From IMG/VR virus record IMGVR_UViG_2698536337_000006: DNA of 5,958 nucleotides. One strand, written 5' to 3'. Source of the stretch: a virus. Its lineage: Duplodnaviria; Heunggongvirae; Uroviricota; Caudoviricetes. The stretch's first letter is position 1. Every line of letters begins with the position of its first letter. Shown one piece after another: positions 110 to 780 of this stretch. The notes beneath the pieces were generated by a model. It ran no database searches, was not told where the DNA came from, and worked only from the letters and a program-made list of their open reading frames with translations. The translations under genes were made by a program, and so were the position numbers.

Positions 110-350
110 CTCAGCTATCGTCCTCTTATTTTGCCGTTACATTTCTTTTTGCATTCTAATGATTAATTTACAATAATAATATCGGTAATTATTGAGTAAT
201 AATAAATTAATTATTGCAAATGTAATTTAATTCCATCTTCGCGTTATATTCCAATCTTTAATCTCCGCATGGAACAAGTTGCATGCGTGACTATATTAAG
301 ACGACTTATAACCACCAAAACATTTGCTTTGCAAGCAAAAACAGTGACCA

Positions 351-379
351 TTGACTCTAAGAAAATTCCGATCTATTGT
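351..379 (+). promoter_or_regulatory. Candidate sigma70 promoter: TTGACT (-35) - 17 bp - TATTGT (-10)
   Basis: -35 hexamer at 351-356 matches the consensus at 5 of 6 positions, with a 17-bp spacer and -10 at 374-379. The background is AT-rich, so chance promoter-like matches are common. Confidence 0.25.
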
Positions 380-664
380 TAGGGTCATCAAAGTTACTTA
401 ACAGTATTCCGAAATGAAAATACAAAGCAAGCTAATTGTCTTATTAAACATTATTATTGCATTTATATTATTTGAGCTTTTAGCTCAAAAATTTGGTTTG
501 AGTACATTATTTTAAAGCAAGATAAACAATATCGGGCACTCTAGTTTTTATAATTAACAATTAAACGTCCATAAAATGTTATTTACTTTTCTTCGCTATT
601 GTCATATCTTAATATAGTGGCTTACGCCACTCTACTTTCATCACATTTTGTACGTTTATGTACT

Positions 665-697
665 CGCCATGAAGCTCTTTCATGGCGATTTTTTATT
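665..697 (+). terminator. Rho-independent terminator (plus strand)
   Basis: Perfect 9-bp stem cgccatgaa (665-673) / ttcatggcg (679-687), 5-nt loop gctct, immediately followed by ATTTTTTATT (688-697). On the minus strand no U-tract follows, so it is oriented to stop plus-strand transcripts coming from the AT-rich segment. Confidence 0.55.
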
Positions 698-780
698 CTT
701 AATCCAAGAACATACTCCCTACCTATAGCAAAATCACTTTTTTAACAAAAGAATAACGTATTTAGGTAATCATTACGAAT

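Follow-up and report, generated by a model that had tools for sequence, protein, structure and literature searches.

An AT-rich tract downstream of tfa in a lambda-like prophage is a mosaic that probably carries a YncL-family small-protein cassette

YncL (Escherichia coli b4598; NF000537; PF28073) is a stress-response inner-membrane protein of only 30-31 amino acids (aa). Production of YncL causes a partial, sublethal depolarisation of the inner membrane, nucleoid condensation and a phage-shock response, and lowers viability (PMC12542507). In Salmonella, yncL is sigma-S dependent and its transcript was first catalogued as the small RNA (sRNA) STnc1110 (PMC5437024). Membrane localisation and induction by heat or sigma-S are likewise known for YncL (PMC12542507; PMC5437024). 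Here, we analysed a 5,958-nucleotide stretch of viral DNA (Caudoviricetes; IMG/VR record IMGVR_UViG_2698536337_000006), hereafter the window, which matches a lambda-like prophage at attLambda, adjoining bioA-ybhB. Its tail-fibre genes tfa (781..1362) and stf (1362..4451) are both encoded on the minus strand, and directly downstream of them lies an AT-rich tract that the initial annotation had described as a single segment, possibly regulatory, coding for a small RNA or small protein, or the remains of a decayed cargo gene. This tract is probably an acquired mosaic at the tail-fibre end, with a moron-type cassette (203-697) at its functional core, which is transferred along with the tfa 3' end and encodes a paralogue of YncL. 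The corresponding open reading frame (ORF) occupies positions 414..515 on the plus strand (33 codons plus stop, MKIQSKLIVLLNIIIAFILFELLAQKFGLSTLF) and its product is a predicted single-pass membrane peptide.

Relatedness to YncL was assessed at the level of profiles, sequences and patterns. The six-frame fragment holding the ORF matched the NCBIfam profile NF000537 ('stress response membrane protein YncL') with an E value of 1.9e-5, and three natural variants of the peptide matched it with E values of 1.3e-5, 3.7e-5 and 7.5e-5, residues 1-28 aligning to positions 1-28 of the 30 in the profile. One reversed and five shuffled peptides, used as controls, gave no match to NF000537 at E values up to 10. 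BLASTP against K-12 YncL returned 39% identity over 28 residues (E 2e-7), and hhalign against 14 YncL orthologues gave a probability of 95.5% with an E value of 1.4e-8 (94.9-95.5% across runs). A near-identical frameshift variant of the peptide (P0018) carries a precomputed PF28073.1 assignment, and PF28073 was present on every named YncL protein returned. Tandem-doubled peptides were used as database queries, the matches serving only to identify relatives. A phmmer search of 1.84 billion representatives recovered the peptide itself and one frameshift variant only, and phages yielded nothing by tblastn with the peptide, which may be an effect of the low-complexity filter. No similarity to the K-12 yncL locus was detected at the DNA level, a scan of genome contigs with a peptide-degenerate pattern gave 0 matches, none of the 512 stretches picked up by an alignment-based scan was confirmed by tblastn, for which the peptide is too short a query, and a literature search found no prior description of these sequences or of yncL in connection with a prophage.

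The alignment with YncL runs end to end from Met1 and the two proteins are of nearly the same length. M1, S5, L10, N12, A16, L19, F20, L22, F27 and G28 are common to both, and in both a single hydrophobic helix is flanked by basic residues at positions 6 and 26. Twelve positions are invariant among the 14 chromosomal YncL orthologues (M1, V3, S4, S5, T7, V8, N12, A16, L19, F27, W29 and F30). Six of these are kept in the prophage peptide (M1, S5, N12, A16, L19 and F27), V3 and V8 are conservatively replaced by Ile, and S4, T7, W29 and F30 are lost. N12, A16, L19 and F27 are thus invariant in both subfamilies, and the prophage peptide has 33 aa with one predicted helix. It differs from YncL in being 2-3 residues longer at the C-terminus, and its gene adjoins tfa, lacks a Shine-Dalgarno sequence and has a different 3' region, whereas chromosomal yncL lies between patD and ortT. 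A degenerate DNA pattern built from the residues common to both groups matched only 48 cassette loci in IMG/VR. In metagenomes, the same pattern gave 120 matches listed, all in ORFs of 29-33 aa, and among these each was either a chromosomal YncL (MNVSS[RK]TV...) or the prophage peptide (16 loci), with 0 intermediates. Because the hidden Markov model (HMM) matches, the shuffled controls, BLASTP, hhalign, the PF28073 assignment and the pattern searches agree, the peptide is, as judged from its sequence, a true, though divergent, YncL-family member that forms a prophage subfamily of its own.

Judging by its pattern of substitutions, the ORF is selectively maintained. It was intact, at 33 aa, in 58 of the 59 extracted copies (the remaining one reaches its contig end before the ORF), with only 4 peptide variants among them. 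The cassette alignment comprised six lineages; most copies were 95-100% identical, and the most divergent lineage, Sx181, was 78.6% identical. The ORFs of the window and of Sx181 differ by 18 nucleotide changes, which amount to 7 synonymous and 5 non-synonymous codons, the latter mostly conservative. Start, stop and length are retained in Sx181 and there is no indel within the ORF; indels lie immediately outside it only. When the same substitutions were placed at random, an open frame with ≤5 amino acid changes arose in ~1/10,000 trials (p about 1e-4). In the K15 lineage, one of 6 changes was non-synonymous (permutation p = 0.016). The hydrophobic core of the peptide (Kyte-Doolittle mean over 19 residues up to 2.5) has Lys2 and Lys6 on one side and Lys26 on the other, and the initiation region is near-unstructured (-2.3 kcal/mol over 61 nt). 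Frameshifted versions of the ORF are also present in public assemblies (P0018 and P0020). These diverge after residue 26-28 and could represent either homopolymer sequencing errors or real inactivations. Two other annotated ORFs were considered and rejected as genes. The reading frame of the 37-aa ORF annotated in phage PhiR70_1 (269..382) is shifted by indels between lineages. The 55-aa ORF annotated in phage ev099 spans the junction between the attachment-site (att) arm and the AT-rich filler described below, is cut by the insertion sequence IS1 in the window and has no family match.

Signals that could direct expression of the ORF were found on either side of it. A sigma-70-type promoter-like site (351..379, plus strand; TTGACT, 17-nt spacer, TATTGT) was the best plus-strand promoter match in the cassette (9/12 consensus positions); its -10 hexamer has a C just ahead of it, and transcription is predicted to start near 386. 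Sx181 keeps both hexamers (TTGACT / TATCGT), and the promoter segment is 86% identical in this lineage, compared with 66-76% for most neighbouring segments. Downstream, a strong intrinsic terminator (664-697, plus strand) consists of an 11-pair stem (664-688) followed by TTTTTTATT, with the T-run at 689-697. It would halt convergent transcription 85 nt before the tfa stop. The terminator closes a structured 3' element (613..697, plus strand), in which it is preceded by a hairpin (616-631), a U/A-rich single strand (632-649) and a second, small hairpin (650-663). This element is the most conserved part of the cassette. It is 93% identical in the divergent lineage, versus 66% and 68% for the segments flanking it and 66-80% elsewhere in the cassette, and it folds with -27.1 kcal/mol (z = -6.6). 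Substitutions within its stems keep pairing (G-C to G-U; G-U to A-U), with 0 double compensatory changes. Further candidate structures, namely a pairing of 277-301 with 607-631 and hairpins at 266-287 and 471-489, were rejected as they are neither conserved nor compensated in other lineages.

The occurrence of the cassette among genomes links it to tfa. Positions 203-780 form a sharply bounded 578-bp block that was found in 831 of 5426 complete E. coli genomes, at up to four copies per genome. The block also occurs in 48 IMG/VR contigs, in 16 metagenome contigs and in the phages ev099, mEp332 and PhiR70_1 (4/50,697 phage records in all). Its left edge is constant at about 203 in every context, and in 61/62 loci its other edge coincides with the stop codon of either tfa or a tfa remnant (aa 147-193). 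Because these loci adjoin a tfa stop or remnant while the far side varies, the cassette travels with the 3' end of tfa, and the last ~47 codons of this minus-strand gene appear to serve as a recombination anchor. The cassette proper (203..697, plus strand) comprises an upstream region, the promoter-like site, the small ORF, a 3' untranslated region (UTR) and the terminator. It is followed by a spacer (698..780) between the terminator and the tfa stop, which co-varies with the tfa 3' end and not with the cassette. This division follows from the lineage GF130, which matches K15 up to ~697 and Sx181 from ~698 onwards, including the tfa remnant. The recombination breakpoint hence lies just after the terminator, making 203-697 separable from 698-780.

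Three arrangements were seen on the far side of the cassette: a YdeO/GadX-like AraC regulator, the prophage end at ydfJ with stacked tfa remnants, or sitABCD with or without a major facilitator superfamily (MFS) transporter. The last arrangement was seen in loci L009-L011, L065 and L066, where the cassette sits between prophage tail-fibre genes and the sitABCD genes for iron/manganese uptake, sometimes together with a Bcr/CflA MFS efflux gene. The sit genes are thus prophage-end cargo in those strains. Stacked remnants of the tfa 3' end were observed in L003 (4148-4240 and about 4900-4990) and L009 (2892-2991 and 3596-3754), each followed by different AT-rich cargo, one of which has a 65-aa ORF (L003 4564-4760, plus strand). 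These stacked remnants suggest that cassettes were captured repeatedly through recombination at the conserved tfa C-terminus. In the E. coli 042 prophage, no copy of the cassette follows the tail-fibre genes.

In several respects the cassette resembles a moron, an autonomous transcription unit that has been added to a lambdoid genome. The concept reportedly goes back to Juhala, Hendrix and colleagues in 2000 and is exemplified by bor and lom of lambda and by the morons of HK97/HK022. The composition of the cassette deviates from that of its neighbours (30.1% GC; tfa, 48.5%; stf, 55.4%), it has a promoter-like site and an intrinsic terminator of its own, its orientation is independent of the late operon, and it is present or absent among related phages at a known cargo site past the tail-fibre genes. 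It differs from other morons in that its coding part is only 33 codons long and its 3' UTR is longer than the ORF.

The compositional boundary was equally clear when GC content was computed exactly for sub-ranges of the window. Positions 115-780 have 29.4% GC (117-202, 24.4%; 203-780, 30.1%), whereas positions 1-110 have 46.4%, and the lowest value among all 666-nt windows of 781-5958 was 48.0%, so that the AT-rich tract lies well beyond that range. In a 100-nt GC profile, the tract began near 116/117 and extended to the stop codon of tfa (781-783). No ORF of ≥60 codons starting with ATG, GTG or TTG was found in the tract, the longest wholly inside it being 48 aa (599..745) and the longest stop-to-stop frame 58 aa. 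These data agree with the initial annotation, which had reported a sharp GC drop after tfa and no substantial ORF immediately downstream of this gene. Its further proposals, that the region past the tail-fibre genes is a hotspot for cargo and that the tract may encode a small protein, gained support from the varying far side of the cassette and from the 33-aa frame under purifying selection, respectively. As a single segment, the tract held up in coordinates and composition only: the comparison of its junctions by BLASTN against genomes and among prophages, which had been proposed as a check, resolved it into a mosaic of three pieces of different ancestry (32-116, 117-202 and 203-780).

The pieces were defined by blast breakpoints against the 5426 complete E. 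coli genomes, with breaks at 116/117 and 202/203. The gene order across the region is ybhB, insertion-sequence remnants, an AraC-family regulator, IS1, the AT-rich tract, tfa, stf, lom and J. The first 31 bp of the window (1..31, minus strand) are the terminal inverted-repeat end of a full-length IS1, the remainder of which lies to the left of the window. In L001 and L002, a 768-bp stretch between IS1 terminal repeats (judged by eye; L001 5264-6031), annotated 'IS1-like element IS1A family transposase', ends exactly at window position 31. The deposited complete genomes of ev099, mEp332 and PhiR70_1 hold the same tract without IS1, and in ev099 550 bp (L007 3451-4000) occupy the place that IS1 takes in the window. 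Since the flanks of IS1 in the prophage show no 9-bp target duplication and the 550 bp are present in IS1-free phages, IS1 replaced them via an adjacent deletion. IS1 was also observed in the tract independently at no fewer than three positions, i.e., at least at window 31/32, at ~155 (L004, about 4243-5000) and at ~660 (L061, 12586-13090). Deletions in the tract were seen at window 31/32 and in L004, L061 and L063.

Positions 32..116 (85 bp, 48% GC) are the last part of the phage arm of a fossil att junction at serU (tRNA-Ser CGA), cut by IS1, and their ordinary GC content is thereby explained. This piece occurs alone in other prophages, e.g., adjoining an incomplete serU copy at the end of the prophage close to zinT in E. 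coli 042 (L005 4001-4086; serU junction comparison region, L005 3551-4086). In ev099, a 340-bp segment of chromosomal DNA (L007 3551-3890; 97% identity to K-12) comes before it and is made up of the yodB-serU spacer and 62 nt from the 3' end of serU. The fossil junction in ev099 implies a past aberrant excision or inter-prophage recombination. By its ancestry, the 32-116 piece is taken to be unrelated to the AT-rich cargo. The linker at 117..202 (24% GC) was found in the attLambda-type lineage only. It holds short palindromes and direct repeats (I6, I7, I9 and D9), and no conserved feature was found in it. Positions 32-202 as a whole are therefore interpreted as junction debris, composed of a fossil att arm and AT-rich filler cut by an IS1-mediated deletion.

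Other features of the region were noted. To the left of the window, past IS1, a prophage-borne AraC-family regulator of 247 aa (L001 4314-5057, minus strand) has its best match in YdeO (E 9e-43, far under the equivalog cut-off), followed by GadX, and presumably resembles Psr, the prophage-encoded acid-stress-island regulators of enterohaemorrhagic E. coli. To the right of the tract, tfa encodes a tail fibre assembly protein of 193 aa (from the ORF list and annotation) and is convergent with the small ORF. An Rfam match to IS009 (218 bits; 821-1019, minus strand) lies wholly inside the tfa coding sequence and is not an independent RNA gene. At the far end of the window, positions 4343-4642 are repeated directly at 5339-5638 (~996-bp spacing, 90% identity). 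A lom-like ORF occurs twice, with a truncated second stf N-terminus (110 aa) between the two copies; the ORFs involved lie at 4544..4870, 5115..5447 and 5540..5866, all on the minus strand. This looks like a tandem duplication of lom and stf' upstream of the full stf.

How the cassette might act can be outlined from these features, and we infer promoter use, translation, membrane insertion, a physiological role and control by H-NS and antisense transcription as its steps. A sigma-70 promoter at 351-379, perhaps leaning towards sigma-S, would produce a transcript of ~310 nt from the strand opposite the late operon, ending at the intrinsic terminator and encoding the 33-aa inner-membrane peptide. 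The C upstream of the -10 hexamer, taken with the sigma-S dependence of Salmonella yncL (PMC5437024), makes stationary-phase expression plausible. As a diverged paralogue of stress-induced YncL that keeps the basic residues at 6 and 26, the mid-helix Asn12 and the C-terminal F-G, the peptide would, by analogy, lower membrane potential and most likely act in the lysogen as a membrane-active modulator, which could serve as a metabolic brake, an exclusion factor or a defence factor or benefit the fitness of the lysogen. The invariant Asn12 would suit helix-helix association. Expression is probably kept low by the AT-rich, H-NS-prone context. A scan for the H-NS high-affinity motif gave one weak, uninformative match. 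During lytic growth, antiterminated late transcription running antisense would oppose the cassette.

Several observations weigh against this account. HMM scores of 22.5-25 bits are below the NCBIfam equivalog cut-off for YncL of 35 bits, which denotes the same protein with the same function, and K-12 YncL itself scores 68.6 bits; the peptide is consequently classed as a homologue or paralogue and not as an equivalog. The coding-constraint test draws on essentially three lineages, and the peptide is only very rarely called by gene finders. Ahead of the ATG, a Shine-Dalgarno sequence is lacking; K-12 yncL has one (AAGGUGG). Promoter-like matches in the tract are no commoner than expected from shuffled sequence (5 versus 4.2). 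The conservation of 613-697 may be due to a recent recombination patch, given the GF130 breakpoint directly after the terminator, and can therefore reflect either function or such a patch. Finally, the physiological role is extrapolated from overexpression of a paralogue that is 39% identical.

The same 3' element invites another explanation, in which the functional product is an RNA, namely a ~80-nt Hfq-type sRNA from 613-697. It could be transcribed from a weak promoter of its own (582-610; TTTACT, 17-nt spacer, TATCTT) or arise as a processing product of the small mRNA's 3' UTR, and it may coexist with the peptide in a dual-function locus. The conservation and strong fold of this segment and its architecture, which is typical of sRNAs, are in keeping with such a product, as is the deletion variant L063, which retains only the 613-697 element beside tfa. 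There is also a precedent in the Salmonella STnc1110/yncL transcript, first regarded as an sRNA (PMC5437024). As a predicted short transcript in which a small ORF is combined with a structured, conserved 3' end and a Rho-independent terminator, the cassette RNA resembles this transcript and KilS, which a RIL-seq prediction paper lists with the Rac prophage gene kilR (PMC8175672). However, a search of positions 1-1400 against Rfam 15 at E values up to 1 returned only the IS009 match inside tfa and nothing in 1-780, which sets the element apart from known dual-function and 3'-UTR sRNAs. The -10 hexamer of the 582-610 promoter varies between lineages, and duplexes predicted between the 3' element and either the cassette's start region or that of K-12 yncL did not outperform dinucleotide-shuffled controls. 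The lack of compensatory double substitutions, and the fact that plain terminator function or a recombination patch might account for the conservation, also count against an RNA product, which we consider possible but unlikely. SgrS/SgrT is a further likeness among dual-function sRNAs. A bifunctional module, in which a YncL-like depolarising peptide effecting abortive infection, superinfection exclusion or dormancy is joined to a 3'-UTR Hfq-type sRNA acting on host targets and turned off in lytic growth by antisense late transcription, appears quite improbable. Small, hydrophobic and prophage-borne, with ~30 aa and a single predicted transmembrane helix, the peptide also resembles type I toxins and other small depolarising peptides (Hok, TisB and YohP), and its closest homologue, YncL, depolarises the membrane and lowers viability when produced (PMC12542507). 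A type I toxin-antitoxin-like module, in which a membrane toxin is held by antisense RNA (a minus-strand sRNA or the late transcript), could draw on the convergent orientation of tfa and the late operon, on the long 3' UTR of an ORF without a Shine-Dalgarno sequence, and on minus-strand promoter-like sites at 605-576 and 318-290. Yet these sites are weak, the 605-576 site has a different -35 hexamer in each lineage, and neither a conserved antisense promoter nor a minus-strand terminator was found. The fold-back of 277-301 with 607-631 loses pairing in Sx181 without compensation, and the unstructured initiation region offers no sequestering mRNA fold. YncL itself has not been described as the toxin of such a system. 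Nor was a cognate antisense RNA identified or a sequence relationship of the peptide to Hok, TisB or YohP seen, in an analysis that included neither PADLOC nor a search of toxin-antitoxin families. We judge such a module to be very unlikely.

A non-functional origin of the tract, as decayed cargo or AT-rich junction DNA in which the frame survives by chance or recency, would fit with the high identity of most copies, which leaves little time for decay, with the repeated targeting of the tract by IS1 and its deletions, with the missing Shine-Dalgarno sequence and with the true debris at the neighbouring 32-202. Such an origin is hard to reconcile with Sx181, in which the ORF kept its start, stop and length despite 18 substitutions and indels just outside, or with end-to-end homology to an established family from Met1. 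Moreover, none of the ten longest six-frame stop-to-stop fragments showed a pseudogene signature of a larger gene when compared with Pfam, PHROGs and NCBIfam, the sole match being YncL; matches to Cmr2_Zn-bd (E 0.069) and phrog_20630 (E 0.11) were dismissed as weak. Among the blastn matches listed for the 5426 E. coli genomes, none overlapped an annotated feature inside the tract, and the frames flanking the small ORF carry indels between lineages. The decayed cargo gene offered as an option by the initial annotation is thus not supported by these data, and we place little credence in a tract devoid of function. AT-rich, H-NS-bound upstream regions are typical of AraC-type regulators, and the YdeO/GadX-like gene, on the minus strand past IS1, points away from the tract, which places the tract upstream of it. 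A long upstream regulatory region of this gene is nevertheless extremely unlikely, as in IS1-free phages ~950 bp, including chromosomal serU-flank DNA, separate the AraC gene from position 203, the cassette also occurs without the AraC gene (beside sitABCD or at a prophage end), and its linkage is to tfa. By the criteria applied here, the cassette does not qualify as a type I toxin-antitoxin module, a known Rfam RNA or a recognisable pseudogene.

A moron-type cassette encoding a YncL paralogue, our favoured interpretation of positions 203-697, bears on both annotation and small-protein biology. None of the RefSeq and phage records inspected carries an annotated feature for the peptide ORF, which represents a concrete case of a real gene below standard ORF size cut-offs. 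Likewise, 'empty' AT-rich DNA beside tail-fibre genes can be resolved into datable pieces, here a deletion mediated by IS1, a fossil att junction that had captured chromosomal DNA, and a tfa-linked moron. The finding is useful in these two fields and leaves concepts unchanged unless the toxin-plus-sRNA or defence reading is true. If the module were bifunctional, it would represent an unrecognised and widespread lysogenic-conversion or defence element (in about 15% of E. coli genomes) riding on tail-fibre recombination. For only a few small membrane proteins of bacteria, YncL among them, has a cellular phenotype been reported. Its paralogue, present in lambdoid phages with deposited complete genomes and in about 15% of the complete E. 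coli genomes, provides a natural gain-or-loss system for YncL-family function, and suggests that phages exploit YncL-type activity.

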